In this document: positions 4,171 to 63,776 of the stretch, one piece after another
Position numbering within the stretch: the first letter of the stretch is position 1
Layout of the letters: each line of letters opens with the position of its first letter
Made by a program: the position numbers and the translations under genes
Assembly (NCBI GenBank): GCA_964503955.1
Contig: CAZDCG010000001.1
Span: forward strand, 382,864-446,863
DNA: 64,000 bases
Source: an uncultured Gammaproteobacteria bacterium
Lineage (GTDB): Bacteria; Patescibacteriota; Patescibacteriia; VMEV01; CAYQCH01
Direction: 5' to 3'
Notes under the pieces: model-generated
What the model saw: only the letters and a program-made list of their open reading frames with translations
Told to the model about the DNA's origin: nothing
The model's database searches: none

Positions 4171-5253
4171 ATGTCCTTCTCCATCGGAATTGTCGGTCTT
4201 CCCAATGTAGGCAAATCAACAACCTTTAAAGCGCTTACCCGCAAACAGGTCGACGCAAGCAATTATCCGTTTTGCACGATCGATCCCAATGTCGGCGTGG
4301 TAAAAGTTCCGGACGCGCGCATTGACCAGCTCGCGTCTGTTTATCCGTCGGAAAAAATCCTTCCGACAACGATTGAATTCGTTGATATTGCCGGACTTGT
4401 CAAAGGCGCTTCGCAAGGTGAGGGGCTTGGCAATAAGTTTCTTGAAAATATCCGCGGGGTTGATGCCATCGCGCAGGTTGTCCGCACGTTTGATGATGGG
4501 AATATAATCCATGTTGCCGGGAAAGTGGATCCGGAAAGCGATATCAATACCATCAACCTCGAATTGATCCTCGCGGATCTTTCCCTGGTGGAAAAACGAC
4601 TGAAAAACGCTCAAAGCGCGGCCAAAAACCCCAATGACAAAGAGGCAAAAAAAGAGGCGGAAGCATTTGCCAAACTGTTTGAAGCACTCAATAACAATCA
4701 GTTCGCCTCAACGGTCAGCCTGAATGAAGACGAAACGGAAATCGTGAAATCACTCCGCCTGCTCACCATGAAGCCGATGCTTTATCTGCTGAATGTGGAT
4801 GAAAACGAACTCACAAAGGAAATCACCCGGCCAGCCTGGCTGGCTCAGGACGCGGTTATTGTCCGCATCTGCGCAAAGATCGAATCGGAATTAGCAGAAC
4901 TTTCTCCTGAAGATGCCAAAAGCATGCTTGAGGATTTAGGAATGCGTGAATCGGGTCTTGATCAGCTTATCAAAGCCAGCTACCAGCTGCTCAACCTTGA
5001 AACATTCTTTACCTGCGGCCCCAAAGAAACACGCGCGTGGACAATGGAAAAAGGAACCAAAGCACCTCAAGCGGCAGGAAAGATTCACACCGATTTTGAA
5101 AAAGGCTTCATCCGCGCCGAGGTGATCAACTGGAAAGACTTTGTGGAATACAAAGGCGAATCCGGCGCGCGCGATGCCGGTAAACTCCGCACGGAAGGAA
5201 AAGAATATGTGATGCAAGACGGAGATGTTTGTCACTTCTTGTTTAATGTTTAA
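4171..5253 (+). CDS. ychF: Ribosome-binding ATPase YchF (Obg-like ATPase)
   Basis: P-loop [13 protein letters not shown]-domain motifs and a C-terminal TGS domain. The true start is the ATG at 4171 (MSFSIGIVG), downstream of the 4126 ORF start. Confidence 0.9.
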
Positions 5254-5425
5254 AGGGTTAACGTGTTCACGGGTTAACGAGTTAACGGGTTGATGCGTTG
5301 AGAGTGCAATGTCATCCCGACCTAGCGCAGCAGTCGGAAGAATCTCCTCCTTTCCGGGTACAAGAGCTGTCATCTGTGTGTCTGAACCGTCTGTGATGTC
5401 TGTGCGTCTTAGCGTCTGTGAATCT

Positions 5426-5476
5426 AAAAAGCCGGGAGATATCCCGACTTTTTTGATTCAACTTTCCCGGCTTTTT
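5426..5476. terminator. Bidirectional rho-independent terminator between convergent ychF and the Nudix gene
   Basis: aaaaagccggga...tcccggcttttt is a 12-bp perfect inverted repeat flanked by A-run and T-run. Confidence 0.55.
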
Positions 5477-5958: not shown

Positions 5959-6033
5959 ATTCGGATTGTTAACGTGTTAACAGGTTAACGCATGAACGCA
6001 TGAATACGCTAACACGCTAACGAGAGTATTATA

Positions 6034-7236
6034 TCATTTTTTCCTTAAAACGAGGATCTCACGTCCCACATGCTGGTTTGCTCGCTTATAATCCACCCCG
6101 CCGCGTTCGCTTGAACTCACGTCTTTTGGCAAGGAAACAACTTCCCACTGCCGCTTCATTGAGCGGGGAATCGGCACGCGTTTTGTTCCAATAAAAGGGA
6201 AAATCATGACAAGCACGCCGTCATTTTTCAATACCCGGTGCATGGCAAGCAGTGCTTTGTCGTACAGGTCAGAAAGCGCATCCTGCCGTTCATTCACTTC
6301 TCCAGGTTGCAGCTTTTTGCGAATGGGTGTTCCAAGATACGGTTCTGTCACAATCAGATCGACGAATGCTTCAGGCAGCCACTCATCCACTTCCATCACA
6401 TCAACCTGTTCAATGGTGGATTGAAATTCATGCCCGCGCTCGCCTCGCAGCCAGTCGAGGTTGCGCCGTGTATCATCGATGGCTTTGTCTGACAAATCGC
6501 TGCCAAGAACTTTTCCCGCACCAAGCAAAACCGCTTCCTGCAGAACCGTCCCCGATCCGCAGAACGGATCAAGCAAAACGGTTTGTTTGCTGATGGGTTT
6601 TCCGGAAAGGTTGATCATCATGCGCGCGAGTTTGGGAGGCAGCATGCCCGAACGGTCGTCTCGGAATGGACGGGCAAAATCACGGTCGGAAAAAGCTTGA
6701 AAATCCTGCACGCCAAGCGTTTTTCCAATCCAGATATGCTCACTCGCCAGCCCGAGCAGAAGCTCAACTCCTTGGCCTGTCAGCAGCTTGTTCTTTTTCA
6801 CCACGACAGACGAAAGCTGCTCCTCTTTGCTTTCCACAACGCGAACAGAGGCACCCTGTTCCTTCAATGATGCGCGGATACCGAATAATCGCTTGCGCAC
6901 GTCCTCCTGGAATAATCCCAGCTGCTTGCCTGAAACCTTGTCGTCAGCTTTGTAAACGCTTGCTCCAAAATAGAATTTTTCTTTGCCGGCGGGCTTTACG
7001 AGTTTTTGCATATGCTTGTCCAGGTCAGATGCGGTTATCTCACGCACGGCGGCGACTTTGATACTTCCGCCAAGCAGGGGGAATAGTTCCGCCAGATCGC
7101 GCTCTGACGCAAAGACCGCCAGATCAGATGAGCGGTCGACTAAATCGGCTTTGATTTCAAATGCGGAAAAAACTCGCAGAATTTCGGCTAGAGACAGCTT
7201 ATCTTCACGGCCGAGAATGAAGGCGAAATGAGACAT
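6034..7236 (-). CDS. THUMP-domain RNA (guanine-N2)-methyltransferase-like protein
   Basis: SAM motif I LDPFCGSGT and motif IV-like TEPYLG. The N-terminal half has a THUMP-like fold. Resembles the Trm11/RlmL class. Confidence 0.65.
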   Translation of the reverse strand: MSHFAFILGREDKLSLAEILRVFSAFEIKADLVDRSSDLAVFASERDLAELFPLLGGSIKVAAVREITASDLDKHMQKLVKPAGKEKFYFGASVYKADDKVSGKQLGLFQEDVRKRLFGIRASLKEQGASVRVVESKEEQLSSVVVKKNKLLTGQGVELLLGLASEHIWIGKTLGVQDFQAFSDRDFARPFRDDRSGMLPPKLARMMINLSGKPISKQTVLLDPFCGSGTVLQEAVLLGAGKVLGSDLSDKAIDDTRRNLDWLRGERGHEFQSTIEQVDVMEVDEWLPEAFVDLIVTEPYLGTPIRKKLQPGEVNERQDALSDLYDKALLAMHRVLKNDGVLVMIFPFIGTKRVPIPRSMKRQWEVVSLPKDVSSSERGGVDYKRANQHVGREILVLRKK

Positions 7237-7618
7237 GTGGCCAACGAAAAAAGAATAATAGCTTCATACTGCCCTAAAATACGATTCCTTGCCAATTTCC
7301 GCTATTTCTGTTAATGTTGAGCAACCGTAAAGGCCCATTTTGCCGCCATTTACGGAGCTATTTACAACATTTATTTCGCTATTCTTCGCCGAAGGCCGTC
7401 CTGCCGGAAGACTAACTAGACGAAACTAGATTAGCCAGACGGGAGATCGAGTCGCTGCATCGAGCCCAAGGTTTTGAAGATTCGGTGCCATGCAAGGAAG
7501 ATTCGAGGATCGAACCGAGGCGTACGAAAAGGTACGCTGAGGAAGAACCGCAGAATCTGACAAAGCAGGGTGCCGAAGATACAAAACCGCTTAGATGCAG
7601 GTGGAATAGACATGCTTT

Positions 7619-8263
7619 ATGGCAACTGCCACAGCAACCGCTCAAGCGGAAGACACAAAAGACGCGCGCGTGCGACGCTATGAATTGCTCGCTATCGTGC
7701 CGAACAAATATACCGAGGATGAAATTCCTCAGATGCAAAAGACCATTGGCGCGCTCGTTGAAAAAGTCGGAGGGGAAACCGTAAAGGAAATCAATTACGG
7801 CAAACGGCGCCTTGCCTATCCGATCAAACACAATCACTACGGATACTACCTGCTCAGCCATTTTGATCTCACCTCCGGCCAGGTAAAAGAACTCGACGCG
7901 TACCTGCGCGTGCAGGATGAAATCATCCGTTATCTGATCACCTTCGCCCTGCCGGAAGGATCCGTGCCAAAAGAAGCAGGCGACCTGCGGGCACAGGAAG
8001 AACCAAAGCGCGAAGAGAAAACGGAAGACAAACGCAGCGCGAAGAAACCTTCCATCACCGACGTACAGGCAACAGACGAAGAACGCAAGAAAATGGCCAA
8101 AGGAACCGCATTCGATCTTGAAAAAGAACTGGGCGTTACCGCGGAAGAGGCGAAAAAATCCCTTGAAGAAAGCGGGAAGGAAAAATCAAAGAAAGACGAA
8201 AGCGTTGATCTTGCAGGGTTGGATAGCAAGCTTGACGAGATCATGGGAGACCTTGAAAAATAG
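7619..8263 (+). CDS. rpsF: 30S ribosomal protein S6 with a long charged C-terminal extension
   Basis: The S6 core is RRYELLAIV...INYGKRRLAYPI. AGGTGGA sits 6 nt upstream of the ATG at 7619. About 110 aa of K/E-rich tail follow the core. Confidence 0.8.
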   Translation: MATATATAQAEDTKDARVRRYELLAIVPNKYTEDEIPQMQKTIGALVEKVGGETVKEINYGKRRLAYPIKHNHYGYYLLSHFDLTSGQVKELDAYLRVQDEIIRYLITFALPEGSVPKEAGDLRAQEEPKREEKTEDKRSAKKPSITDVQATDEERKKMAKGTAFDLEKELGVTAEEAKKSLEESGKEKSKKDESVDLAGLDSKLDEIMGDLEK

Positions 8264-8352
8264 ACGTTTCAGACTCACAGATCTTAAAGACATCACAGAC
8301 GCAAAGTCTGCGTGTCTGGCCAACCTGTGATGTCTGTGAGTCTGCTCACGAT
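8264..8352. repeat. Palindromic intergenic repeat (GTCTGTGAGTCT family) downstream of rpsF
   Basis: agactcacaga ... tctgtgagtct inverted repeat. The same family occurs at 5380-5425, 8808-8903, 34821-34905, 55590-55635 and 56588-56641. Confidence 0.6.
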
Positions 8353-8367
8353 TAAATCCAATTATCT

Positions 8368-8805
8368 ATGGATCTCAACAAAGTCATGATCATCGGCCGT
8401 CTTACCAAGGACCCTGAGGCAAAGACAACGCCAACGGGTGCCAGCGTCACCTCGTTCAGCGTCGCGACAAACTTCTCATGGAAGGACCAGGCAGGCAATA
8501 AACAGGACAAAACCGAATACCACAATGTGGTTGCCTGGAGAAAGCTCGCGGAAATCTGCGCGCAATACCTGCGAAAAGGTTCAAAAGTCTATATCGAAGG
8601 CCGGCTGCAGACCCGCTCCTGGGATGACCAGTCCGGCAATAAGCGCTACATGACGGAAATCATTGCCGACAATATGATCATGCTCGACAGCAAAGGCGCG
8701 GGAATGAGTTCTTCAACCCCGTTCCCGGCAGGCAATGCCGCTCCGGCAGTTCCTCCGGCTCCTCCTGCTGACGACGAGATCCGCATTGAAGATATTCCAT
8801 TCTAA
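8368..8805 (+). CDS. ssb: Single-stranded DNA-binding protein
   Basis: OB-fold SSB core (MIIGRLTKDPE...YHNVVAWRKLAE) with an acidic C-terminal tail DDEIRIEDIPF. Confidence 0.85.
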   Translation: MDLNKVMIIGRLTKDPEAKTTPTGASVTSFSVATNFSWKDQAGNKQDKTEYHNVVAWRKLAEICAQYLRKGSKVYIEGRLQTRSWDDQSGNKRYMTEIIADNMIMLDSKGAGMSSSTPFPAGNAAPAVPPAPPADDEIRIEDIPF

Positions 8806-8904
8806 CATCAAGACTTTTCAGACCCACAGAATAGGCAGACAGCACAGACAAATACCACCGTCTGTATGCCTGAAAGATCTGTGGCGTCTGTGAGTCTCTC
8901 ACTT

Positions 8905-9144
8905 ATGCGTAAGAAACAACCTCAACAGCAGCAGCAAGCAAAGGAGAAATCCTGCTACTTCTGCGTAAACATGTACCACGAAATTGACTACAAAGACCCG
9001 CAGATGCTTCGACGCTTTATGTCGTCCTACGCCAAAATCGCACCGACGCGACGCAGCGGTCTCTGCTCAAAGCATCAGCGAAAGTTGAGCGTGGCAATTA
9101 AAAAGGCCCGCATCATGGCCATTGTTCCATTCACACGAAGATAA
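8905..9144 (+). CDS. rpsR: 30S ribosomal protein S18
   Basis: The protein starts MRKKQ...CYFC and continues through IDYKD and SGLCSKHQRKL. It is the third gene of the classic rpsF-ssb-rpsR order. Confidence 0.85.
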   Translation: MRKKQPQQQQQAKEKSCYFCVNMYHEIDYKDPQMLRRFMSSYAKIAPTRRSGLCSKHQRKLSVAIKKARIMAIVPFTRR

Positions 9145-9225
9145 AAAGGTCGTAGTGGGTAGTGTGTAGGAGGTAGGATTGGATCGCATTCCTGCCCACG
9201 CACTGCACACTACATCCTACCCACT

Positions 9226-9795
9226 ATGTTATCGATGAACGAAATCAAGCTCGGAAAAGTTCTTAAATGGGATGGCGACCCGTATGTGGTTATCAAAACC
9301 GAGCATTCCAAAAAGGCGCGCGCCGGCGCCGTGCTCCGCGTCAAGATGAAAAATGTCTTTACCGGATCCGTCATTGAGAACACATTTCAAGGAGCCGACA
9401 AGGCCGAGGAAGCAGATCTTGAACGAGGCAAAAAAGCGCAATACTTGTATAAAGACGATCAGGCGGCGCACTTCATGGATCAGGAAAGCTTTGAACAATT
9501 CGGACTTGACCTTGACCAAATCGAACAGCAGCTCAATTATCTCTCTGAAGGGGAAAATGTCCTCTACATGAGCTATGAAGGCAAGCCGGTTGCGCTGGAC
9601 CTTCCTCCAAAAGTGGATCTTCGCGTAACCGAAGCTCCCGAAGGCGTGAAGGGCGACTCGGCGCAGGGACGCGTGATGAAGCTAGCCACCGTTGAAAGCG
9701 GATATGAACTGCAGGTGCCTCTCTTTATCAAAGAAGGCGACCTCATCCGCATCAATACGGAAACGGGTGAATACGTAGAACGAGTGAAGGAATAA
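9226..9795 (+). CDS. efp: Elongation factor P
   Basis: Full-length three-domain EF-P. The tip-loop sequence is SKKARAGA, with Arg at the position of the usually modified Lys. Confidence 0.9.
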   Translation: MLSMNEIKLGKVLKWDGDPYVVIKTEHSKKARAGAVLRVKMKNVFTGSVIENTFQGADKAEEADLERGKKAQYLYKDDQAAHFMDQESFEQFGLDLDQIEQQLNYLSEGENVLYMSYEGKPVALDLPPKVDLRVTEAPEGVKGDSAQGRVMKLATVESGYELQVPLFIKEGDLIRINTETGEYVERVKE

Positions 9796-17340: not shown

Positions 17341-20300
17341 CTACGCAGCCACTTCAACTTCTTCGCTTACCTCTTCCTGCGATTCTTCGCCGTCTTTCTT
17401 ATAGCCGGTTCCGGCTGGAATCAAGCGGCCGATAATCACGTTTTCTTTCAAACCTTCAAGCGGCTCAACGCGGCCATTGATCGCTGCGTTGATGAGCACG
17501 CGAGCGGTTTCCTGAAAGGATGCCGCAGAAAGGAAGCTGCGTGTGGTCAAAGAAACCTTGGTGATACCAAGCAGCATGCGGTCAAATGTCGCGGGCTTCT
17601 TGCCATCGGCAATGGCTCGGTCATTTGCCTCCATTGCTTCCTGATACTCAGCGATTTCTCCCGGGAGAAGATCCGTATCACCGGCATCTTTGATCATCAC
17701 GCGCGAGAAGAGCTGACGCGCAATGATTTCCACGTGTTTGTCATTGAGCTTCTGTCCTTGAGAGCCGTAAATATCCTGAATCTGCTCCATGATGTACTTC
17801 TGCGTGGCGCGCCGTCCGCGAAGATCAAAGAGTTCCTGCAGACTGAGATGTCCTTCCGTGAGCGGAGTTCCCTTTTCAATTTCTTGTCCGTCCTGAACGA
17901 GGATTGAGTAGCCAAGCGGAATAACGTATTCCATCACGCCAGGAGTAGCCATGGCCACTTCAATGTACTCGTCGTGAACGGCCACCTTGCCGCCACGCAA
18001 TGCGCGCACTTCATCGCCATTTTCATCGAGGTAGAGGATGCCGTCAGCTTTCACCTTGCCGCCATCCTTCACCTTCAGCTTGGTCTTCTTGGCGATTGGA
18101 TAGGTGTCAACCTCGTTTGCCTCATGTGCGATGCGAATGACTTTCTGTTTGAATGAGCTGTTTGGCACATTCGCCTTGGCAAGATCCTGATTCACAACCG
18201 TAATCTCTTCGATCTGCACCTTGCCGGCAACCTCGCTGATAAATGCCTTACGCTTTGGATTGCGGGCTTCAAACAATTCTTCCACGCGAGGGAGACCCTG
18301 GGTAATATCCGCAGAGCTTGCGATACCTCCGGTATGGAAGGTCCTCATCGTCAGCTGGGTACCAGGTTCACCGATACTCTGCGCGGCGATGATTCCCACC
18401 GCGGTTCCCATTTCAACAACGTCCGCATGTCCAAGATCCCATCCATAGCATTTCTGACAGATGCCTTTCTTGGAAGCGCATTCCATAACCGTGCGGACAG
18501 CCACTTCTTCAAGGCCGGCTTTGTCGATGGCAATGGCAGCATCTTCGTCAATCAATTCAGCCTTCTTTACAAGGGTTTTTGAACCGCTCTTGATATCGGT
18601 GAGCGCGAAGCGGCCGATGATACGGTCTTTCAGATCGCGGTTCATGGCGACACTTTCTGCGCGGGTGATGACAAGGCCCTCTTCGGTTCCGCAGTCAATT
18701 TCGCGGATAACCACATCCTGCGACACGTCAACAAGACGACGCGTCAGATATCCAGCATTTGCGGTACGAAGCGCGGTATCGGACAGACCTTTGCGGGCAC
18801 CGTGAGTTGAGATGAAGTATTCAAGAATCTCAAAGCCGTCCTTGAAATTACCGCGCACCGGAAGCTCGATAATTTCACCGGCAGGGTTGGTTACAAGCCC
18901 CTTCATACCGACGATCTGGGTGAGCTGCCCCCATGAACCGCGGGCTCCGGATTCCACCATGGTATAGACCGGTCCTTCCGTATCCATGGCTTCATGGCTG
19001 ATCGCCACGATTTCATCTTTCACCTTGGTCCAAATTTCAATGATCTTGCTGTAGCGTTCGCTATTGGTGAGCAGCCCCATATTGTACTGCTCCTGTACTT
19101 CGTCCACCTTCTTTTCAGCGGCTTCAAGGATTTCTTTCTTCTTATCAAGATGCGGAATATCATCCATACCCCATGACCATCCAGAGAGGGTAATGAACTT
19201 GAATCCAAGGTGTTTGATGGTATCAAGCAATTTCGCGGTCTTTTCGATTCCAAGTCTTTCAAATGAACGCTGAACGATGCGCGAAAGAACCTTTTTATCG
19301 ATCAGTTCGTTGATATATGGCAGTTCAGACGGCATCTGGCGGTTGAAGACAATGCGGCCGACACAGGTTTCTTGCAGCCCGGCTTCAAAATCCGTGTGGG
19401 CATCGAATCGTACGCGGATGCGTTCGCGCAGGTGAATCGCGCCAAGGTTATAAGCAGCCAGGGCGTCTTCTTCGCTCGCGAAATGCTTGAGATCTTTGAC
19501 ATCTTTCTCTTTATCTTCCTTGCGAAGCGATGTCATGTAGTACACGCCCCAGATCATATCTTTACTTGGCGTGGCAATCGGTTCACCGGTTGCTGGCTTG
19601 AGCAGGTTCTTGGCGGAAAGCATGATTTCTTTCGCCTCGGCTTGCGCTTCATCGGTCAAAGGCAAGTGAACAGCCATTTGGTCACCGTCGAAGTCGGCAT
19701 TGAATGCGGCACAAACAAGCGGATGCACCTGGATGGCTTTTCCTTCAATCAAAATCGGCTTGAATGCCTGGATACCAAGACGGTGCAGGGTCGGAGCGCG
19801 GTTGATCAAGACATGTTTGTTCTTGATCACGTCAGCGAGAATATCCCAGACTTCAGGACGGTTTGATTCGATATAGCGGCCAGCGGAACGGACATTATGC
19901 ACATATCCTTCCTGAATCAAGCGGCTGATCACAAACGGCTTGAACAATTCAAGCGCCATTTTCTTTGGCACGCCGCATTCATCAAGCTGAAGGTGCGGAC
20001 CGACAACGATCACCGAACGTCCGGAGTAGTCTGTTCGTTTACCAAGCAGGTTCTGGCGGAAGCGTCCCTGTTTTCCTTTCAGGATATCGGCAATCGATTT
20101 GAGCTGGCGTTTCTGCCCGGTAGACGCGGTCACGGTTTTTCCATGGCGCATGCCATTGTCGATCAGCGCGTCGACCGCTTCCTGCAACATGCGTTTTTCG
20201 TTTCGGGTAATCACTTCCGGCGCGCGCAATTCAATCAGCTGTTTAAGGCGGTTGTTGCGGTTGATCACGCGGCGGTACAAATCATTCAAATCGGAAGTCG

Positions 20301-29609: not shown

Positions 29610-30041
29610 ATGAGATCAGAAAAGTTTTCATTTCAAATCTTCTCCGCGGCTCTGGCGGTTTTTTCGATCACACTTCTCTTTTCTTTTGATTTCGCTTCTG
29701 CTCGCCCAACCCAATCGCCTCCAAATGGCAGTCCGTCATGGCCGCCGGGGCCTCAAGGACCTCAAGGACCGCAGGGACCGCAAGGATCTCAAGGACCACA
29801 GGGAGCTCAAGGGCCTCAGGGTCCTCAAGGACCACAGGGACCCGCAGGAACAACGACATGCGACTGGAATGGGAGCTTTTGGATCAGCCATGGATGGGAC
29901 GGCAACTGTGCTTGGTATGTCGGAGTTCGCATCAATTGCAGTGGAGGACGAGTAACATCCTTCACAAATTATAACTATACTGGAGCCGGTACTTGCGGAT
30001 ATATGTGCTACGCGGGGGGCGCCTGCCACCAGCCTTCTTAA
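29610..30041 (+). CDS. Small secreted collagen-like (Gly-Pro-Gln)n protein with a Cys-rich C-terminal domain (paralog 1)
   Basis: Signal peptide ending ASA|RP, then PPNGSPSWP, about 11 G-X-Y triplets (mostly GPQ), and a CDWNG...HGWDGNC Cys-rich domain. Confidence 0.6.
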   Translation: MRSEKFSFQIFSAALAVFSITLLFSFDFASARPTQSPPNGSPSWPPGPQGPQGPQGPQGSQGPQGAQGPQGPQGPQGPAGTTTCDWNGSFWISHGWDGNCAWYVGVRINCSGGRVTSFTNYNYTGAGTCGYMCYAGGACHQPS

Positions 30042-30047
30042 GGCGTC

Positions 30048-30461
30048 GTGTTTACATTTCGTATGACAATAGCTTTCTTGCGAAAACAACTTCAAATTCT
30101 GATGGCTTGTCTTGTTGTTTCAGGCGTGATTATGCTCTTCAACGCTGTGAAAGCTGCGCCCACTCAAAACCCGCCTGCAGGCAATCTCTCCATTCCTGCA
30201 GGCCCAGCCGGACCCCAGGGACCGCAAGGACCACAGGGATCTCAGGGACCGCAAGGACCACAAGGACCTCAGGGATCGCAAGGTCCACAAGGAGCTCCTG
30301 GAAACGCCAGCTGCAGCTGGAACGGCTATATGTATCTGAATCATGGATGGGATGTTGGCACAGGATGCCAGGGATACCGCGGCATTCTCGTTCGATGCAG
30401 CGGCGGACAAACCTATGACTTTTCACGCATCACCAATTGCGGGCCTTTCGCAGGATTCTAA
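30048..30461 (+). CDS. Small secreted collagen-like protein (paralog 2)
   Basis: Signal peptide ending VKA|AP, a (GPQ/GSQ)n run of about 12 triplets, and CSWNG...HGWDVGTGC. Confidence 0.6.
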   Translation: MFTFRMTIAFLRKQLQILMACLVVSGVIMLFNAVKAAPTQNPPAGNLSIPAGPAGPQGPQGPQGSQGPQGPQGPQGSQGPQGAPGNASCSWNGYMYLNHGWDVGTGCQGYRGILVRCSGGQTYDFSRITNCGPFAGF

Positions 30462-30463
30462 TT

Positions 30464-30877
30464 ATGAAATCACTTAACCAGTTCAATCTACTACTCAGTA
30501 TTGCCGCCACCGTCACAATCGCGGGCTTATTTGCGATGAGTTCAGTGAAAGCGGAACCAAGTATTGCCCCTCCGGGAGGCAATCCGAGTTTTCCTGTTGG
30601 TCCGCAGGGTCCACAGGGACCCCAAGGACCTCAGGGACCCCAAGGACCTCAGGGAAGCCAGGGGGCGTCAGGATCCCAGGGCCCGGCGGGACTGTACGGC
30701 ATGGGGTTCTGCTACTGGAATGGCCCTGAGTTCGTCAGCTACGGATGGGATGGATGGTGCGCGGGTGATATCGGTGTCTTCTTCCATTGCGACGGCTACC
30801 GTCTCTACCATCTTTCTCAACGATACACCGGGTGCGGAAGCTCAGGAACATATCCAAGTACGCCTTACATCAACTAA
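30464..30877 (+). CDS. Small secreted collagen-like protein (paralog 3)
   Basis: The ATG lies 2 nt after the previous stop. Signal peptide ending VKA|EP, a (GPQ)n run and CYWNG...YGWDGWC. Confidence 0.6.
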   Translation: MKSLNQFNLLLSIAATVTIAGLFAMSSVKAEPSIAPPGGNPSFPVGPQGPQGPQGPQGPQGPQGSQGASGSQGPAGLYGMGFCYWNGPEFVSYGWDGWCAGDIGVFFHCDGYRLYHLSQRYTGCGSSGTYPSTPYIN

Positions 30878-30896: not shown

Positions 30897-30926
30897 AAAA
30901 TCCAAAAAGCCGCCTGAATAGGCGGC
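30897..30926. terminator. Bidirectional rho-independent terminator
   Basis: aaaaagccgcc-tgaata-ggcggctttttt. Confidence 0.6.
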
Positions 30927-30948
30927 TTTTTTCTTTCTTATGAAGGCC

Positions 30949-33008: not shown

Positions 33009-33656
33009 ATGCGCAATCACATTTTGCTGCACGGAGTTCTGGGAGTTTTTATCGGCATGTTCGGTGCCGCTCTAGGGATCTCCATTATCAACTACACATT
33101 CGCTGCTCCATCAGAAGCTCCTCCTGGGGGCAATCCAACGTTTCCCTTGCAAGGTCCAACCGGACCGCAGGGTCCACAGGGACCTCAGGGGCCGCAGGGG
33201 CCGCAGGGACCACAAGGACCGCAGGGACCGTCAGGGACAGTTAGCCCATCACAGACAATCAGCTTGCGAACCTCGAGTTCGATCTGGTATTGCACGCAGG
33301 CAAATCTACAAGCTGAATGCGGTGACGCGGATGGGTGCCGAATTCGGATGGTTATGGACCACAAAACCGCTGGAAACGACGACACGCGTATCATTGAAGA
33401 GCACCTGTACATGGAGAACTGGAGTGTGAATTCCGCTAACGGTGTATACGGCTTTACGCGTCAGCTTGGCGGAGGCGATGGCGGATGGATTTCAGGTCCC
33501 GGCTATCATTATGCAGTCGCCGCCCCATGGGATTGGGCCTGGATCCACACCTTTCGACATGCGAATTGTTACGGTTCAAACCAGTCGCTTTCTGCTTACA
33601 ACTTCAATTTCATGACCCATCCGGATGTCGCGACAACCTTCTACGTCTTTGACTAA
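33009..33656 (+). CDS. Secreted collagen-like protein (paralog 4) with a distinct, larger C-terminal domain
   Basis: Signal peptide ending FAA|PS, about 9 GPQ triplets, and a roughly 130-aa C-terminal domain unrelated to paralogs 1-3. Confidence 0.6.
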   Translation: MRNHILLHGVLGVFIGMFGAALGISIINYTFAAPSEAPPGGNPTFPLQGPTGPQGPQGPQGPQGPQGPQGPQGPSGTVSPSQTISLRTSSSIWYCTQANLQAECGDADGCRIRMVMDHKTAGNDDTRIIEEHLYMENWSVNSANGVYGFTRQLGGGDGGWISGPGYHYAVAAPWDWAWIHTFRHANCYGSNQSLSAYNFNFMTHPDVATTFYVFD

Positions 33657-33663
33657 AAGCGAA

Positions 33664-33692
33664 AAAAAAGCGCCCCGGCCGGGGCGCTTTTT
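33664..33692. terminator. Bidirectional rho-independent terminator
   Basis: aaaaaagcgccccggccggggcgcttttt. Confidence 0.6.
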
Positions 33693-34814: not shown

Positions 34815-34896
34815 AAGGTAAAGACTCACAGACACACAGACTTCACAGACGCACAGACCTTACATTGTCTGTAAGTCTTGAGATTCTGTTCGTCTG

Positions 34897-36402
34897 CTAT
34901 GTCTGGGCAGCTTGCTGCCTTAGCCATTCTACCACGACGCGGGCGCCTGCTCCCGTACTGCCAGGAGCAAGATGACTTTTTCCATTGCTTTCCCAGGCAA
35001 CCCCTGCGATATCCAGATGCGCCCAGTCATATTTGTCTGCCACAAAGTGATTAAGGAAAGCCGCAGCCGTAAGAGCTCCTCCATAAGGAACCGAGGCAAT
35101 ATTGGCGATATCAGCCACCTTGCTGTTTAACAACTTTCGGTAATGATCCGGCAGCGGAAGTCTCCAGACATGGTCGCCTGTTTTCTCGCCGGCTGCTTCA
35201 AGCGCGTCGGCAAATGCATCGTTCTTGGTAAATAGCCCGGCCGCATAATCATGCAAAGACAATGCGCAGGCGCCAGTCAGGGTGGCCAGGTCAATAACGG
35301 TTTTTGGTTTGTATTGCCGCGCGTAGACAAGCGCGTCCGCCAAAAGCAGCCGGCCTTCCGCATCGGTATTAAGCACTTCAATCGTTGATCCGTCCATGGC
35401 ACGCAAAATGTCGCCGGGTTTATAGGCTTCATGGCCCGGCATATTTTCGCTGGCCGGCACAAGCGCCACCACGTTGAGAGGAAGCTTGAGTGCGGCCGCC
35501 GCGCGGACAATGGCAATGGCCGCGGTGCCGCCGCTCATGTCAAACTTCATTTCATGCATATTCGAGCTTGGCTTGATCGAAATTCCACCCGTATCAAACG
35601 TAATGCCTTTTCCGATCACAATATATGGCGCGGCGGATTTCTCGGTTCCCCAATATTCCATGATAATAAACTGCGCTTCTTCCGCAGATCCGCGGGAAAC
35701 GCCTAAAATCGCTCCCATGCCAAGCTCTTTCATTTCCTTTTCTCCAAGAACTTTCACGGTGATGGTGCCTGCTTTCTTACCCGCTTCTTTGGCAAAGGCA
35801 GCCAGCTGCTTTGGCGTAATTTCATTGCTTGGATGATTGGCGACCTCGCGGCTTTCATTGACCTGTTCGGCAATGAGCGCGCCGGCTTTCACTCCCTGCG
35901 ATACGCTGGCAAGTTCTTTCTTATTTTCCACATAGACAATCATCTGTTTCATGCGCGGATGTTTTTTCTTCAAAAACGCGGAATATTCATAACTTGCAAG
36001 CATGGCGTACTCACCGATGATTTCAGAAAGATGTTCGACTTCAGAGAAACTCTCGGCAAGCGCGTCGCGAAACCAAAACCCGGCCGTGGCTACTTTATGC
36101 GTTTGAGCATGCCGCAATGCCTGACCGAGGAGTTCACCAAAATCTTTCGCTTTCAAGTCATTCATTTTGCCCACGCCGAGAAAGAAAACAAACCGGAGTC
36201 CTTTTTTCCCTCCAGTCGGCAGAACAAAGTGCTTGAATTCGCGGGCTTTGCCGGCAAATTCTTTCCGCGCGAGCGCATCTTTAAGCAATTCTTCTGCGGT
36301 TTTGGGCAACCCCTTTGGGATAGGTTCTTTTTCAGCAATCGGCACGAATAATGCCTCAACATCTTTCTGCGACCACTTTCCTTGTTTGACGCTTATTTTC
36401 AT
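34897..36402 (-). CDS. pepA: Leucyl aminopeptidase (M17 family)
   Basis: M17 signature NTDAEGRL and the metal ligands are present. Confidence 0.85.
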   Translation of the reverse strand: MKISVKQGKWSQKDVEALFVPIAEKEPIPKGLPKTAEELLKDALARKEFAGKAREFKHFVLPTGGKKGLRFVFFLGVGKMNDLKAKDFGELLGQALRHAQTHKVATAGFWFRDALAESFSEVEHLSEIIGEYAMLASYEYSAFLKKKHPRMKQMIVYVENKKELASVSQGVKAGALIAEQVNESREVANHPSNEITPKQLAAFAKEAGKKAGTITVKVLGEKEMKELGMGAILGVSRGSAEEAQFIIMEYWGTEKSAAPYIVIGKGITFDTGGISIKPSSNMHEMKFDMSGGTAAIAIVRAAAALKLPLNVVALVPASENMPGHEAYKPGDILRAMDGSTIEVLNTDAEGRLLLADALVYARQYKPKTVIDLATLTGACALSLHDYAAGLFTKNDAFADALEAAGEKTGDHVWRLPLPDHYRKLLNSKVADIANIASVPYGGALTAAAFLNHFVADKYDWAHLDIAGVAWESNGKSHLAPGSTGAGARVVVEWLRQQAAQT

Positions 36403-39600: not shown

Positions 39601-39678
39601 CCAATTAATCTGAATCCTGAATTCTAGGTCTGATTTCTGGTTCTGAGGCAGCTCAGAGTCAGATCAAGAGTTCAGAAT

Positions 39679-40122
39679 TCAGAGCTCAGATCCATTAAAG
39701 AATGATTTTCCGGTTTCAACTTCATCCATGAATTCATTCACCCATCCAACGCAATCCAATTCCCTCTTCGCCTCTTCAAAACTCATCCAGCGGTAATCCT
39801 GATGTTCATGACTGATCTGGACTTCCTGATGTTCTGCTTTGCCAAGAAAGAGAAAGGAAACGAATTCCACATTTGGATCAATGGCTCCGCGGATAACTTT
39901 ATAGCGCAGAAATTTTTCAATATGCACATCAAGCCCTGATTCCTCTTTGCACTCGCGCAAGACTGCTTGTTCAGGGGTTTCCAGAAACTCTTTTGAACCG
40001 CCCGGGAAATCCCATTGATTGGCGCCAAATTCCTCATTTTTTCCACGCTGTAAAAAAAGAAATTGTCCGTGCTCATTTCGGACAACGCACACGCAGGTGG
40101 CGATTGTCTTGTACTCGCGCAT
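39679..40122 (-). CDS. Nudix hydrolase
   Basis: Nudix box GGSKEFLETPEQAVLRECKEESGL. The start is MREYKT at 40122. Confidence 0.6.
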   Translation of the reverse strand: MREYKTIATCVCVVRNEHGQFLFLQRGKNEEFGANQWDFPGGSKEFLETPEQAVLRECKEESGLDVHIEKFLRYKVIRGAIDPNVEFVSFLFLGKAEHQEVQISHEHQDYRWMSFEEAKRELDCVGWVNEFMDEVETGKSFFNGSEL

Positions 40123-40202: not shown

Positions 40203-40560
40203 AAGAACCCCCTCATCAAGTCCATGACTCTAGACAGTTGATCCCTGTCCCCCTTTTCTAGGGGGAAGAAGTCGCTTCTCCCCTCTTGAAAAGAGGGGCT
40301 GTGAGAGACGTGGAGTAAAAATCAACATGCTTGGGGGAGTTCTGGGCTTGGTAATCCCTAATTTTATCCTCATCCTTATCTCTCATTACTCCCCAACTCC
40401 TCCACCTAATTCCTAAGTCCTAATTCTTTGAGCGGCTTTATGACATTAGCATCTTAAAGAATTAGGGGAAGGAATTAAGAATTAGGGAAATAAAAATACG
40501 CCCATGAATAGGCGCTGCTTTATTCGTAAATTTGTATTCGATTCGCACATTCGTACCCCC
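40203..40560. repeat. Composite cluster of palindromic intergenic repeats (families B, C and D)
   Basis: Contains cccccttttctaggggg / cccctcttgaaaagagggg hairpins, the cctaattcctaa...ttaggaattagg hairpin, and a copy of the groES-groEL spacer element ttcgtaaatttgtattcg. Confidence 0.65.
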
Positions 40561-40659
40561 ATCACTTCTCTATAAGTAACATCTGTTCCTTACAAAGAGG
40601 TGTTCTGCGCCGCGCTCCGGAAAGGAGGCGGCGCAGAAGCGCTCAAGGTTCTCGCGAAC

Positions 40660-46313: not shown

Positions 46314-48029
<1,716 letters not shown>

Positions 48030-48093
48030 TTACGAATATGCTGTGAAGCAGGTTTATTTGTAAATTTGTATCCGATCTGTGATTTGTACCCAA

Positions 48094-51479: not shown

Positions 51480-51930
51480 CATGGATAGCAGCACGCCAGA
51501 ACCCCCTCATCATCCTTGTGATTTTATTGTTTTCTCCATCTCCCTTTTCTAGGGGGAAGGACTAGGCACGCAACCATCTTCCCCCCTCTAGAAAAGAGGG
51601 GTCGCGATAAAGATACTAAATGCAAAAACCTTCTTGGGGGAGTTCTTATTAACCCAGAACCCCCTCTTCATCTTTGTGATTTTATAGGTTTTCTCCCCTC
51701 CCCCTTTTCTAGGGGGAAGATTATCCTAATACACGCAACCATCTTCCCCCCCTCTAGAAAAGAGGGGGCGCGATAAAGATACTAAATGCAAAAACCTTCT
51801 TGGGGGAGTTCTTATTAACCCAGAACCCCCTCGCCAGGTTTACGATTTGCCAGGCTTTATCCAGTCCCCCATTTCTAGGGGGAAGAAGAAACATTTATCG
51901 GTTGAGTAGAACATGCTATAATACTGTCGC
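51480..51930. repeat. Tandem array of about 130-bp composite palindromic repeat units, left part
   Basis: About 2.5 copies of the unit acgcaaccatcttcc-cccctctagaaaagagggg-...-cttgggggagttcttattaacccagaaccccctc-...-ccccttttctagggggaag. Confidence 0.8.
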
Positions 51931-51963
51931 TTGCCCACAGCTAATCATTGTGGGCATTTTTTT

Positions 51964-52407
51964 ATGGACCAAGAAATTCGTTTATATGACCTCTACTATC
52001 GTCGCATGAACAATGATGGCAAGCTTGTTTGGTTGGATGAAGCATTTATGCATCGCCTTAAAGAGCTGCGCAAGAATCAGACAGCAGCAGAAAATATCCT
52101 TTGGCAGAAATTAAGAAGAAAGCAGCTTGGCTCTAAATTTTTGCGCCAACACCCTATTAATGGGTACGTAGTCGATTTCTACTCGCGTACTTATAAGCTC
52201 GCAATTGAACTTGACGGTGCTGTTCACCACGATATTGCAGTAAAATTCCGAGACGCGGCAAGGCAAAAAGAGCTTGAGTTCTATGGAGTCCGTTTCCTAC
52301 GATTCACGAACGAAGAAGTTATAAATCAGCTCGATGGTGTCATTGAAAAAATTAAATCGACGATACGCAACCATCTTCTCCCCTCTAGAAAAGAGGGGCA
52401 AAGATAA
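51964..52407 (+). CDS. DUF559-family (Vsr-like PD-(D/E)xK) endonuclease-domain protein embedded in the repeat array
   Basis: YVVDFYSRTYKLAIELDGAVHH...GVRFLRFTNEEV is the DUF559 core. Its 3' end reads into the next repeat unit. Confidence 0.7.
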   Translation: MDQEIRLYDLYYRRMNNDGKLVWLDEAFMHRLKELRKNQTAAENILWQKLRRKQLGSKFLRQHPINGYVVDFYSRTYKLAIELDGAVHHDIAVKFRDAARQKELEFYGVRFLRFTNEEVINQLDGVIEKIKSTIRNHLLPSRKEGQR

Positions 52408-52570
52408 ATGCATCGCGAAAAACGAAACCTTCTTGGGGGAGTTCTTGTTAACCCAGAACCCCCTCGTTACGTTTACGTTTTGCCAAGCTTTATCCAGTCC
52501 CCCTTTTCTAGGGGGAAGGACTATCCTAATGCACGCAACCATCTTCTCCCTGCACATCGTTCAATCCTCA
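52363..52570. repeat. Tandem array of about 130-bp repeat units, right part
   Basis: About 1.3 further copies of the same unit as 51480-51930. Confidence 0.8.
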
Positions 52571-55502: not shown

Positions 55503-56645
55503 GTTAGCAAAAAATTAAGACCGATCCGTCAAATAGAGTAACAGGCAGTGTAGCGGATTTTTTCGATTTGATCAATACGAAAAAATCCGCAGACGGATCA
55601 GACATCACAGACTTCAAAGACGCGCAGATTGGTGAGAACACCCCCCCTAATTCCCAATTCCTAATTCTTTAAGCATCTTAATTGCTTGAAAGTAATTTCA
55701 AAACAAAAACGCTCCCGATCGCCGTAAAGCAATCAAGAGCATCTTTTCTTTCGTCGTGCGTGTGGAATGCCCTTTGTCGTCGGGCGTGGGGCTCCGTCCC
55801 CGCCCGACACCTTGTCGGACGCGAGGCTGCGTCTCCGTCCGACCTTTTCCACCTCAAATCCGCTACCTCTATACCCCGCTTGATTCAACATCAACCATTC
55901 TTGACCCTTTACCCGCCTCTCAAATCCGGTACCTCTATACCTCCCTCACCTAAAACCAAGGTAAGACAGGGGTATGAGCAAGATAACGGATGAGAAAAAA
56001 CCAGGCTTGAGCAAAGCTCGTGTACCTCATATCGTTTTTCGATACAAAGCGCCTGAATGAGAGGCTTGCAAAGTCATTTGCCACCTTCCCTTGCAGGCCT
56101 GCGGCAAACGGCTTCTCACGAGGCAGGGTAACGGATCCCGGTGTATCAGTTGCTCACCGGCTGCCCCGGCCATCCCGAAAGATGACACTTCAACCTAGAT
56201 TGAAATGGGGGTATTGTCAAGGCTGTTGCTGATCCCAGAACCCCCTCGCTACGTTTTCTTTTCCTCCATGCTTTATTCAGTTCCCCCTCCTGCCTGCCGG
56301 TTTACCCGCCGGAGGAGGGCAGGCAGGTTTCTAGGGGGAAGAAGAGCAGACTCCCCCCCTCTTAGGAAGAGGGGCTAGGAAAAACTTTCTAAAAGAAGAT
56401 ATCCGCTTGGGGGAGATCCTACCCTAATTCCTAATTCCCAATTCCTAATTCTTTGAGCATCTTCACCCGCGATATAAGTTTCCCGCCTGCTAAGCTTTAC
56501 AGCCTGCATAGCAAGAAGGGGCTTGATGCGCGGGGATGATGATCCGCAAGGAGGGGTGATAGCAGCAACACTGTACAATCAAAAAACCCACAGCCGATCG
56601 TCTGTGAGTCTTGAGAGCCTGAAAAGTCTGTGAGTCTGTGCACTC

Positions 56646-58001
56646 CTAGCGCGCCCCGAAATTCTGCACCCAGTACAGTTCAAACCCGCTCTGGCTTTTG
56701 CCATAAGCAAGTCCGAATCCAACCTCGGTGAATTCACCGAGGATATTCGCCAGATGATCCGGGCTGTCAATCCAGGCCTGCATGACTTCTTCAACCGAGA
56801 ATTGTCCTTTGGCGATATTTTCCGCGGAGCGAATGGCTGGATAGCCGGTTGCCGTGATGCGCTCATGCGGTGTCATCCCTTCTGGTGTTTCATGCGCATA
56901 GTACGCGCGGTCGAACATATCCTGCGCATGCGCCTGCGCCGACTGTGTTAACTGGACCTGTAACGTGAGCGGTGCAAGTCCTGATTGCGCGCGGCGGGTA
57001 TTTAATCTGTTAAGCATCTCATTGCGTACCGCGTTCAAATCCGCCAGCGAAGCGGTTTTCTCTGTAAAAAACGATTCAAGCGAACGGGCGAAAACCACAA
57101 AGTAGAAAGAAATATTCTGATACATGCCAATGCCGATTCCAACATTTTCATAATCGGCGTCAACGACATTCTGGTAACTGATATCCTGCTCGGATTTCCA
57201 GACGTCAACGATATTCGTGACCTCATGATTGGTTTGGATCAAATTCTGCGCGACGACGTATGCCACGTATCCGGCTTCTTCAAGACGTTGGGGGATTTCA
57301 ATTCCCTCCGGAGACGTAAAGGAGAAATAGGATCTCTGCGTCATATCATCCGCATGCGTTTGCGCGGCCTGTGACAATTCTTTGATCAATGTATACGGAG
57401 CAAGCCCCTTGCTGGCGCGCTCCAGATTCATTTCATTCAGCAAGGAAATCCGTTTTGTGGTCAGCTCATCTCCAAGCGTGCCTTGCGTCGCATGTCCGTC
57501 GGCGCGATTGCCTCCATTGGAAGGAACCGCCGATTCTTCCGCCACCGGAATGGCAAGCAAATTCTCATCGCTGATGCCAAGACCAAGTTCGCGCATCACC
57601 TTAAACGCGTCGTCCGGTCGTCCAAGATAGGAGCGTTTCAGCGTATCTGGAAAGACATACCAGGCCTCGCCTTTTGATTCCACCTGCAAAAGAATTTTCC
57701 CGCTCAATCGGCTGCGCAAAGAAAGAGAGCCGGTTTGCGAAGAACCGGCTTCAGGGACCAGCGAGAGATCGGCATTGCTGATACCAAGTCCGAGATTGCG
57801 CATAATCGCAAACGCGTCGGCGGGGCGGCCAAGATAGAAGCGCTCATGCGTATCCGGATAGACATACCAGGCTTCTCCATTCGCCTCGACCTGCAATAAG
57901 ATTTTCCCGCTCAAGCGCTGCGCGAGTGTTTGCGCAAAGACAGGCTGATACAAAGACGCGCCAGCCGCGAACAAAAGCGCGGCCAAGATGAATCGTTTCA
58001 T
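56646..58001 (-). CDS. Secreted protein with two CAP (SCP/PR-1-like) domains, each preceded by a conserved ~45-aa repeat
   Basis: Signal peptide. The module SGKILLQVE..GEAWYV.PDT...YLGRP.DAF..MR.LGLGIS occurs twice. The CAP-like C-terminus contains ...ELYWVQNFG. Confidence 0.55.
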   Translation of the reverse strand: MKRFILAALLFAAGASLYQPVFAQTLAQRLSGKILLQVEANGEAWYVYPDTHERFYLGRPADAFAIMRNLGLGISNADLSLVPEAGSSQTGSLSLRSRLSGKILLQVESKGEAWYVFPDTLKRSYLGRPDDAFKVMRELGLGISDENLLAIPVAEESAVPSNGGNRADGHATQGTLGDELTTKRISLLNEMNLERASKGLAPYTLIKELSQAAQTHADDMTQRSYFSFTSPEGIEIPQRLEEAGYVAYVVAQNLIQTNHEVTNIVDVWKSEQDISYQNVVDADYENVGIGIGMYQNISFYFVVFARSLESFFTEKTASLADLNAVRNEMLNRLNTRRAQSGLAPLTLQVQLTQSAQAHAQDMFDRAYYAHETPEGMTPHERITATGYPAIRSAENIAKGQFSVEEVMQAWIDSPDHLANILGEFTEVGFGLAYGKSQSGFELYWVQNFGAR

Positions 58002-63335: not shown

Positions 63336-63776
63336 AAAAACATGCCCCGCATCAAGGGGCTGTTTTTTTATCCCTAATTCCTAATTCCCAATTCCTGATT
63401 CCTCCTTGCCCCCCACTAGCCATGCTTGAGAGGGGGTTCTTGATCAAGAACCCCTCCAACCAGATACCTGATTTTAGAAAGTTTATCACCCCTGAAAAGA
63501 GGTGAAGTCACTCTTCTTCCCCCTTGAAACCTGCCTGCCCTCCTCCGGCGGGTAAACCGGCAGGCAGGAGGGAACTGCATAAAATACCAAGCGAAAGGAA
63601 GCCTGGAGAGGGGATTCTTTCCAAAAGACCCGCGAAGCGGTACCGCGATCTATGTCTATTTTCTAGGTCTAGATCTGTATCTATACCAGCAAAAGCGATA
63701 AAAACGGCGTTAGATATAGACGTAGAAGTTAGAAAAATGAGAAAGAGCGACCATTCCCGCCGAATTTCTTTAAGCA

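Follow-up and report, generated by a model that had tools for sequence, protein, structure and literature searches.

We analyzed a 64-kb stretch of contig CAZDCG010000001.1 (positions 382,864 to 446,863), referred to here as the window; coordinates are those of the window unless a relative is named. The window has a G+C content of 51%, is 12% intergenic, and carries housekeeping genes, among them ychF, a NUDIX gene, a methyltransferase gene, rpsF-ssb-rpsR-efp, recA, and ftsK. The further housekeeping genes include ileS, pepA-ruvA, groES-groEL, uvrA, and the gene for RNase J, along with rpoB and rpoC, which were assigned via open reading frame (ORF) size and synteny with relatives. On the basis of the best named PepA homologs, one from "Parcubacteria group bacterium" at 58% identity and one from "Candidatus Uhrbacteria" at 48%, the DNA is placed in an uncultured, Parcubacteria/Uhrbacteria-like member of the candidate phyla radiation. 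Dispersed between the genes is a family of short repeats, termed family A, which an earlier reading of this DNA (the original prediction) had described as hairpin-forming elements of about 60 to 90 bp rich in CACAGAC/GTCTGTG and had placed at a minimum of six sites. The assignments of the genes for YchF, S6, SSB, S18, EF-P, RuvA, and PepA were confirmed. All counts of family A copies given below are for the 64 kb of the window.

A single arm sequence copied to at least six intergenic sites

Alignment of the palindrome halves with the one-sided copies (alignment A1) identified the repeat unit of family A as an arm of about 40 nt with the consensus CAGACTCACAGACnTCACAGACTnnnCAGACnCACAGAC. The CACAGAC/GTCTGTG-rich family of the original prediction is thus real, but its unit is this arm and not a hairpin of 60 to 90 bp, and hairpins are found at only three of the six loci. 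Each arm consists of about five AGAC cores set on a strict lattice of 8 to 9 nt, the core-to-core distances being 8 nt (11 instances), 9 nt (10 instances), 17 to 18 nt (five instances), and 26 nt (one instance). Tandem Repeats Finder (TRF) independently reported the arms with a period of 8 to 9, 2.4 to 4.9 copies, and 71 to 91% matches. All nine arms could be aligned end to end, with the linkers in the order TCAC, ATCAC, variable, and RCRC and with a constant number of cores. When a profile built from the aligned arms was used to search the window with nhmmer, nine arms at six loci were recovered with E-values of 4e-11 to 2e-6, and the next best match had an E-value of 0.51.

Over-representation was measured against dinucleotide-preserving shuffles of the window. 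The 12-mer GTCTGTGAGTCT occurred in five exact copies and gave 14 matches at up to two mismatches, compared to 2.9 ± 1.6 (maximum of 8) in the shuffles, and the 17-base composite CTGTG-N1-2-GTCTGTGAGTCT was found three times in the window and not at all in the shuffles; the motif count by which the original prediction was to be checked therefore came out in its favor within these 64 kb. The clusters of GTCTGTG/CACAGAC units coincided exactly with the six loci that had been listed. Fifteen of the 19 exact heptamers lay within the 12% of the DNA that is intergenic (binomial p of 3.5e-11), as did all six family A loci (p about 3e-6). The shared linker order, the core number and spacings, and the profile E-values suggest that the arms are copies of one ancestral arm and not independent slippage arrays. 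We conclude that family A is real and that copying has carried a single arm sequence to six or more intergenic sites.

Folding, pairing, and placement of the copies

The six loci comprise three inverted doublets, one truncated doublet, and two singlets. The minimum free energy (MFE) of the RNA was calculated on the sense strand and expressed as a z-score against shuffles. Only the inverted pairs, with a 5'-CAGAC arm, a loop, and a GTCTG arm-3', were found to fold, yielding hairpins of 80 to 95 nt. The secondary structure anticipated by the original prediction was seen at three of the six loci (z of -3.7 to -5.2), and the solo or truncated copies (c4, c5, and c6) folded no better than shuffles.

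The first doublet (c1) lies between rpsF and ssb. Its 5' arm (8263..8307, plus strand, E 2.2e-8) reads CAGAC on that strand, the inverted 3' arm occupies 8304..8348 (minus strand, E 2.8e-10), and the hairpin at 8265-8349 has a stem of 12 + 10 bp with an MFE of -35.7 kcal/mol and a z of -4.22. The outer stem is formed by CAGACTCACAGA/TCTGTGAGTCTG, and the stem is perfect except for an interrupting bulge in the 5' arm that is about one lattice unit long. The second doublet (c2), between ssb and rpsR, is composed of a 5' arm at 8812..8854 (plus strand, E 1.3e-6) and a 3' arm at 8858..8902 (minus strand, E 3e-9); the hairpin at 8811-8897 (MFE of -37.4 kcal/mol, z of -5.18) stops 8 nt short of the rpsR ATG at 8905. 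In the third doublet (c3), between pepA and ruvA, the plus-strand arm at 34816..34860 (E 9.3e-10) becomes the 3' arm when the sense (minus) strand is read, ending 5 nt short of the ruvA ATG at 34817, and is the most consensus-like of all, with AGAC spacings of 8, 8, 9, and 8 and a TRF period of 8 in 4.5 copies. Its partner at 34866..34911 (minus strand, E 2e-6) includes the last two codons of pepA and the TAG stop, and the sense-strand hairpin at 34822-34906 has an MFE of -35.5 kcal/mol and a z of -3.72.

The remaining three loci hold single or reduced copies. The solo arm c4 (5371..5426, minus strand, E 1.5e-10; z of -0.17 for 5372-5426) is without a partner, has GTCT cores at 5380, 5389, 5398, 5406, and 5414, and is situated between the convergent ychF and NUDIX genes, with a canonical bidirectional terminator just downstream at 5433-5446. 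The solo arm c5 (55585..55630, plus strand, E 4.1e-9; z of +0.19 for 55588-55630) is located between the divergent uvrA (minus strand) and an ORF (plus strand) and is directly followed by a repeat of another family, with the unit CCTAATT. The truncated doublet c6 (56598..56644, minus strand, E 4.1e-11; z of -0.54) lies about 2 nt from the stop of a CAP-domain gene (56646-58001, minus strand), and its partner arm is reduced to the stub CCCACAGCC at 56588-56596.

All three hairpins have same-direction cistrons on both sides and begin no more than about 5 nt from the stop codon upstream; their 3' ends are 23, 8, and 5 nt upstream of the ssb, rpsR, and ruvA starts, respectively. Arms often follow stop codons directly, and the pepA stop codon is inside an arm (the 5' arm on the sense strand). 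The placement at gene 3' ends or in same-direction spacers that the original prediction had described does not hold for every copy, since the genes flanking the copy at 55590 diverge. Copies adjoin other repeat families at 5250-5430, 55585-55680, and 56233-56645, as passengers of the type of repetitive extragenic palindromic (REP) sequences and bacterial interspersed mosaic elements (BIME) do.

The elements also bear on the calling of start codons. Homology with the relative L094 places the rpsR start at the ATG at 8905 and not at 8866, an ORF start that falls within the element, and the ruvA start at the ATG at 34817 gives a complete RuvA_N match, compared to a mechanical ORF start at 34835. 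The same was seen at groEL (ORF start of 48014 versus about 47960) and ileS (39600 versus about 39585), so that at all four genes the mechanical ORF start falls within a repeat hairpin and the homology-supported start is downstream. By eye, start regions in the window and in the relatives exhibited no obvious Shine-Dalgarno motif.

To the pairing of the arms, the locus itself contributes nothing that we could detect. The native arm duplexes had energies of -35.1, -39.2, and -32.3 kcal/mol, those of chimeras assembled across loci ranged from -29.1 to -55.7 kcal/mol, and the comparison revealed no co-adaptation of paired arms. An identity matrix likewise showed no locus-specific likeness, arms of one locus resembling one another no more closely than arms across loci. 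Since native pairs are no better than chimeras, pairing stems from family similarity alone.

A terminator role, which was among the functions originally suggested, does not fit the anatomy of the paired copies. On the sense strand the stems have no T-run after them; those in the intervals 8264-8352 and 8806-8904 are followed by GCTCACGATT and CTCACTTATG, and neither interval contains a sense-strand terminator-like site, even though the genome does have canonical T-tract terminators (in the window, for example, at 5433-5446, 30905-30935, and 33665-33692). We conclude that the paired copies are not intrinsic terminators. Were they co-transcribed with the genes of the rpsF-ssb-rpsR and pepA-ruvA operons, the copies located there would adopt stable stem-loop structures.

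Two further features were noted at rpsF (7619-8263). The S6 protein of 214 aa has a long Lys/Glu-rich C-terminal extension, which is a clade feature because the top 40 S6 homologs are 189 to 233 aa long. Upstream of the gene are 382 gene-free nt (7237-7618) that fold strongly (-124 kcal/mol for 394 nt) and have no match in Rfam, known S6 leaders included.

Relatives, known repeat classes, and competing explanations

About 120 kb of DNA from relatives was examined, among them a single close relative, L094, whose S6 is 88% identical. The rpsF-ssb and ssb-rpsR spacers, which are 104 and 99 nt long in the window and contain family A in both cases, measure 81 and 31 nt in L094, where no GTCTGTG/CACAGAC heptamer occurs in 5.3 kb. 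In the more distant relatives L095, L096, and L097 they are 62 and 30 nt, 42 and 35 nt, and 10 and 24 nt, respectively, with family A in none of them. The surplus of the ssb-rpsR spacer in the window over that of L094 is 68 nt as read by eye. The pepA-ruvA spacers of L218 (19 nt), L219 (104 nt), and L220 (175 nt) also contain no family A arm. Presence or absence of the family is thus polymorphic, with copies missing at the orthologous rpsF-operon sites (L094-L097) and pepA-ruvA sites (L218 and L219). Over the approximately 120 kb, the arm profile gave one match (L218 15888-16017, E 5e-5), a family-A-like hairpin that has this lattice and lies between cistrons at a non-orthologous site. This distribution shows family A to be amplified in this lineage, rare in relatives, and not conserved in position. 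It also speaks against the dedicated role in setting differential expression of the rpsF operon that had been proposed from the sequence, because L094 and the three distant relatives have short, element-free spacers and because the arms are not co-adapted.

The elements are fixed within the population sampled. All along them, five Logan contigs agree with the window; L003 and L005 have 14 single-nucleotide polymorphisms, none of which lies in an element, and no strain-level length variation was seen among the five contigs. Two independent Logan contigs break off at arms (window positions 5361 and 8900), as is expected of a multi-copy sequence.

On the basis of these results, family A is probably, with considerable room for doubt, a lineage-amplified, non-coding, dispersed repeat similar to REP sequences and to miniature inverted-repeat transposable elements (MITEs). 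The arms would have spread by a DNA-level copying process, as MITEs or REP sequences and their inverted doublets (REPINs) do, and would have persisted where tolerated, just past stop codons in short spacers. Judging from the relatives, the gain of copies in this lineage would have lengthened the once-short spacers of rpsF-ssb-rpsR and pepA-ruvA. If co-transcribed, the messages would carry interrupted stem-loops of 20 or more bp from the upstream stop to 5 to 23 nt before the next start. As a by-product, such stems could serve as a barrier to 3'-5' exonucleases or as an RNase III-type cleavage site and uncouple the stability of the cistrons; they may also partly mask the downstream initiation region, a block that would be lifted once a ribosome completing the upstream gene opens the stem. 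An effect on operon expression is plausible but would be incidental, and the transcript stabilization or differential expression put forward in the original prediction are possible as side effects of this kind. Family A looks like an ordinary genomic passenger of the REP/MITE type and not like a conserved regulator.

Several observations weigh against this interpretation. No transposase, REP-associated tyrosine transposase (RAYT), or insertion sequence (IS) was found in the window, in a search that compared 40 ORFs with Pfam, with the left 11.5 kb covered by precomputed Pfam results and the rest by PepA and syntenic genes in relatives; Y1_Tnp, the IS200/IS605-type domain, was absent from the window ORFs (64 kb of the genome). 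The approximately 120 kb from relatives similarly yielded no transposase or IS. No target-site duplication was evident by eye at the three paired copies, the only three available, which are flanked by ACGTT/CTCAC, ACTTT/CTCAC, and GGTAA/GCAGC. The copy number was counted in 64 kb of the genome only. The intergenic DNA of L094, the sole close relative, is too diverged for exact insertion boundaries to be drawn. Moreover, a short hairpin whose stem is of a related GACAG/CTGTC type is found in the rpsF-ssb spacers of L094 and L095, and rpsR of L094 is preceded by a GTCT...AGAC mini-palindrome, so that growth of the family A hairpin in place from older, smaller hairpins is conceivable. Finally, the 7- to 9-nt lattice recurs in several further repeat families of this genome, which a model of one transposase and one MITE does not explain.

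Comparison with described repeat classes places family A near two of them. REP sequences are palindromes of 20 to 40 bp with a stem of 8 to 9 bp, a loop of 4 to 5 nt, and an unpaired end tag of GTAG or CGTC (PMC3733652). Like REP, BIME, and REPIN sequences (PMC3733652; PMC3116915), family A has a short unit that occurs singly or as inverted doublets giving a larger hairpin, is intergenic and mostly located after genes, clusters with other repeats, and is lineage specific, with several families per genome; its copy number is high (nine arms at six loci in 64 kb). Unlike a REP palindrome, the family A arm is a direct five-unit lattice that does not fold on itself, as the z-scores of the solo copies (-0.17, +0.19, and -0.54) show, and it is without a terminal tag: there is no GTAG, and CGTC appears only inside lattice units (e.g., at 5387, 5412, 8884, and 56598). 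No RAYT was seen in the window. The term REP-like used in the original prediction is therefore apt as an analogy, for short, non-coding, dispersed intergenic repeats that are single or in inverted pairs and often follow a stop codon, but does not extend to strict REP membership.

Among the MITEs whose RNA forms hairpins within operons are ERIC/IRU of enterobacteria and Yersinia, Correia/NEMIS of Neisseria, RUP, and Nezha (PMC3733652). In common with family A, they are non-coding, dispersed elements of 70 to 300 bp with inverted-repeat ends that lie beside coding sequences and between cistrons, are expected to be transcribed into robust stem-loops that stabilize or destabilize neighboring mRNA, and vary in presence between related genomes (PMC3733652). 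The paired copies of family A, at 85 to 87 nt with inverted arms of about 40 nt and no coding capacity, match them in size and terminal structure. In contrast to these MITEs, family A shows no visible target-site duplication and has no cognate IS or transposase that we could find, is almost entirely arm, has arms that are internally periodic (five units of 8 to 9 nt), and presents arms alone. Membership in the MITEs is thus partial, extending to size, inverted ends, and presence/absence polymorphism but not to target-site duplication; no cognate IS was found in the window or in the approximately 120 kb from relatives. REP/REPIN sequences are the closest class in organization, and bacterial MITEs are the closest in structure and behavior.

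Short-unit arrays offer a third comparison. The short tandemly repeated repetitive (STRR) heptamers of cyanobacteria belong to the long simple-sequence repeats, which have units of 5 to 11 nt. The TAACTGA intergenic direct repeats are found in Beggiatoaceae, Cyanobacteria, and Bacteroidetes, and a regulator-binding role has been proposed for them (PMC4679880). Both resemble family A in having tandem intergenic units of 7 to 9 nt that are often beside start codons, including those of ribosomal-protein operons, and in their scattered phylogenetic distribution. They are direct arrays of variable length made of near-identical units, whereas the family A arms are degenerate, have a fixed number of about five units, and often form inverted pairs. 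The small dispersed repeats (SDR) of Nostoc, reportedly described by Elhai et al. in 2008 as insertions of 21 to 27 nt within heptamer arrays and hairpins, are likewise very small, mobile-looking repeats tied to short-unit arrays and hairpins. The SDR insert into existing structures, and nothing comparable was shown for family A.

Four other classes were set aside on the basis of anatomy, with no dedicated search run for any of them: integron attC sites, since the neighbors are housekeeping genes and not cassettes; CRISPR, since there is no spacer/repeat array; DnaA boxes, which have only a CACA core in common; and uptake signal sequences, which are single exact units and not five-unit lattices, several families moreover coexisting here. 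Rfam gave no match at gathering score anywhere in the 64 kb (1-64000), whether to tRNA, rRNA, or another family, and none of E ≤ 1 for the elements within 7200-9300. A scan of viral contigs and a blastn search of plasmids returned nothing.

Two broader scans, neither of which included the species of the window, were carried out for homologs. A genome collection scanned with CTGTG-N1-2-GTCTGTGAGTCT returned chance single matches together with pure (GTCTGTGA)n arrays and hairpins with octamer-array arms in unrelated metagenome-assembled genomes (MAGs), those named below among others. We read these as convergent simple-sequence repeats, not as homologs of family A, the octamer having been selected by the search pattern. 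Many intergenic, near-pure octamer arrays were observed in the Lentisphaeria MAG WFSE01 (L010, L027, L028, L035, L048, L049, L056, and L083) and the Rhodothermales MAG JBGCEN01 (L008, L013, L029, L061, L064, and L078), with octamers that included GACTCACA, GACTCACG, and GATTCACG, and some octamer-array arms of WFSE01 form long hairpins around a common central sequence (e.g., L049 1355-1555). A metagenome scan with the hairpin pattern returned one human-gut locus on 90 contigs and unrelated hairpin families from soil. The gut locus (L098 and about 90 contigs) is one recurring hairpin of 53 nt. The soil contigs L112, L122, L129, L154, L169, L173, L200, L202, and L210 hold a hairpin family with GCAACTGC-type periodic arms, the termini of which (AGACTCACAGAG...CTCTGTGAGTCT) are the 12-nt termini of family A. 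Soil and gut hairpins were retrieved only through termini shared with the search pattern, which required 11-nt termini.

Three alternatives to a dispersed passenger were considered. The first regards the paired copies as intercistronic RNA structures under selection, which would set how much S6, SSB, and S18 (likewise PepA and RuvA) are made relative to one another through protection of upstream mRNA 3' ends, through an RNase III-type site, or through bridging of stop and start codons for re-initiation without a Shine-Dalgarno sequence. In its favor are the lack of an obvious Shine-Dalgarno motif in the window and relatives and the reach of the hairpins, which is almost exactly that between the stop codon and a point 5 to 23 nt before the next start; an insertion of about 80 nt into a spacer of 10 to 30 nt fills the spacer automatically, however, and such a span needs no selection. 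Long hairpins of other families, also without T-tails, in the same-direction pairs rpsR|efp, NUDIX|ileS, and groES|groEL argue for selection, as does the retention of the rpsR|efp hairpin in L094. Against these stand the absence of family A from the same spacers in L094-L097, the missing co-adaptation of arms at any one locus, and the fact that half of the loci are solo or truncated and do not fold, with one of them between divergent genes. We regard this explanation as unlikely.

The second alternative views the arms as multivalent arrays bound by a protein that reads AGAC/GUCUG-type units 8 to 9 nt apart. The target could be DNA, for a nucleoid or recombinase-type protein or as the subterminal sites of a transposase, or RNA, for a post-transcriptional regulator (compare TAACTGA; PMC4679880). 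This alternative would account for the strict lattice with a fixed number of about five cores per arm and for solo arms, which are incapable of hairpin function, and is consistent with the position of arms next to start and stop codons and with the published precedent of abundant intergenic direct repeats of short units for which regulator binding was proposed (PMC4679880). No candidate binding protein was identified, though, and at least five other families with different units share the architecture and would need many binders; in addition, solo arms take either orientation relative to neighboring genes, and relatives are without arms at the orthologous genes. We consider a binding array very unlikely.

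Equally improbable is the third alternative, in which every locus is an independent, decayed slippage array of octamers or nonamers and the hairpins arose by local fold-back duplication without mobility: the TRF arrays of period 8 to 9 in the arms, the c1 bulge of one lattice unit, the pure (GTCTGTGA)n arrays and octamer-arm hairpins of the unrelated WFSE01 and JBGCEN01, and the small AGAC/GTCT-type palindromes at the same spacers in L094, which are possible seeds, all point its way, but five exact copies of a 12-mer and nine arms that can be aligned over their full extent, with linkers identical in order and length, are not expected from it, and same-locus arms that are no more alike than arms across loci argue against fold-back duplication.

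Other repeat families and biological meaning

The arm architecture of family A recurs in no fewer than five further intergenic families of the window, with arms of about 35 to 45 nt composed of four to six degenerate units of 7 to 9 nt, arranged solo or as inverted pairs. Their units are GTTAACG (period of 8), CCTAATT (7), TACGAAT (about 8 to 9), TCTGAAT (7), and TAGTGGG (7), and the sites, by group, are 5250-5297 and 5967-6021; 40405-40486, 55646-55679, 56419-56465, and 63372-63403; 47999-48091 and about 40525-40565; 39603-39696; and 9146-9222. Members of these families fill the intercistronic spacers NUDIX|ileS, groES|groEL, and rpsR|efp. The rpsR|efp hairpin (9146-9222; -39.5 kcal/mol, z of -5.1) ends 1 to 10 nt before the efp start; its counterpart in L094 (1643-1719) has three one-sided changes, with pairing kept by wobble and no compensatory pair. 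An array of ATTCGTA units was also noted in the relative L220 (approximately 18290-18340), upstream of rpoB.

The recurrence of five-unit lattice arms across families could reflect a mechanism not yet described that depends on periodicity or structure and is independent of sequence, a suggestion that we consider decidedly unlikely. It could take two forms: a generating or mobilizing activity that dispenses with a classical transposase, in keeping with the failure to find any IS in some 180 kb of the clade, or selected hairpins that bridge stop and start codons for re-initiation in operons lacking Shine-Dalgarno sites. Either one, if true, would make these arms a new class of bacterial repeat rather than another MITE.

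Repeats of other kinds are present as well. A G/C-run module (CCCCCTTTTCTAGGGGGAAG, TTGGGGGAGTTCT...GAACCCCCTC) occurs as a 166-bp tandem of 2.4 copies, with four further occurrences elsewhere (51496-51886, 52380-52550, 40240-40300, 56234-56400, and 63421-63454 in all). It flanks an ORF at 51931-52407 that encodes a 158-aa DUF559 protein (Vsr/restriction-endonuclease-like, E 1.7e-30), and the ORF with its flanking modules may be a selfish endonuclease cassette. Coding repeats of 9 nt (Gly-X-Y) at 29742-29842, 30210-30297, 30605-30663, and 33162-33238 lie in small collagen-like ORFs beside a PKD-domain protein, in a gene set that is syntenic in L218-L221.

Family A is a real, lineage-specific, small dispersed repeat of a well-known kind, and no conserved regulatory role has been demonstrated for it. 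It opens no long-standing question and would carry wider weight only if one cause underlies the lattice architecture. Genomes of the candidate phyla radiation (Patescibacteria) are usually considered streamlined and poor in mobile DNA. By contrast, the approximately 12% of intergenic DNA in this genome is crowded with dispersed repeat families, one of which sits inside the essential rpsF-ssb-rpsR operon. In practical terms, family A is a marker: short-read assemblies break at it, strains can be typed with it, and start codons are mis-called because of it (rpsR at 8866 versus 8905). It also constitutes a natural experiment on intercistronic hairpins of about 85 nt and gene expression where the starts show no obvious Shine-Dalgarno motif.

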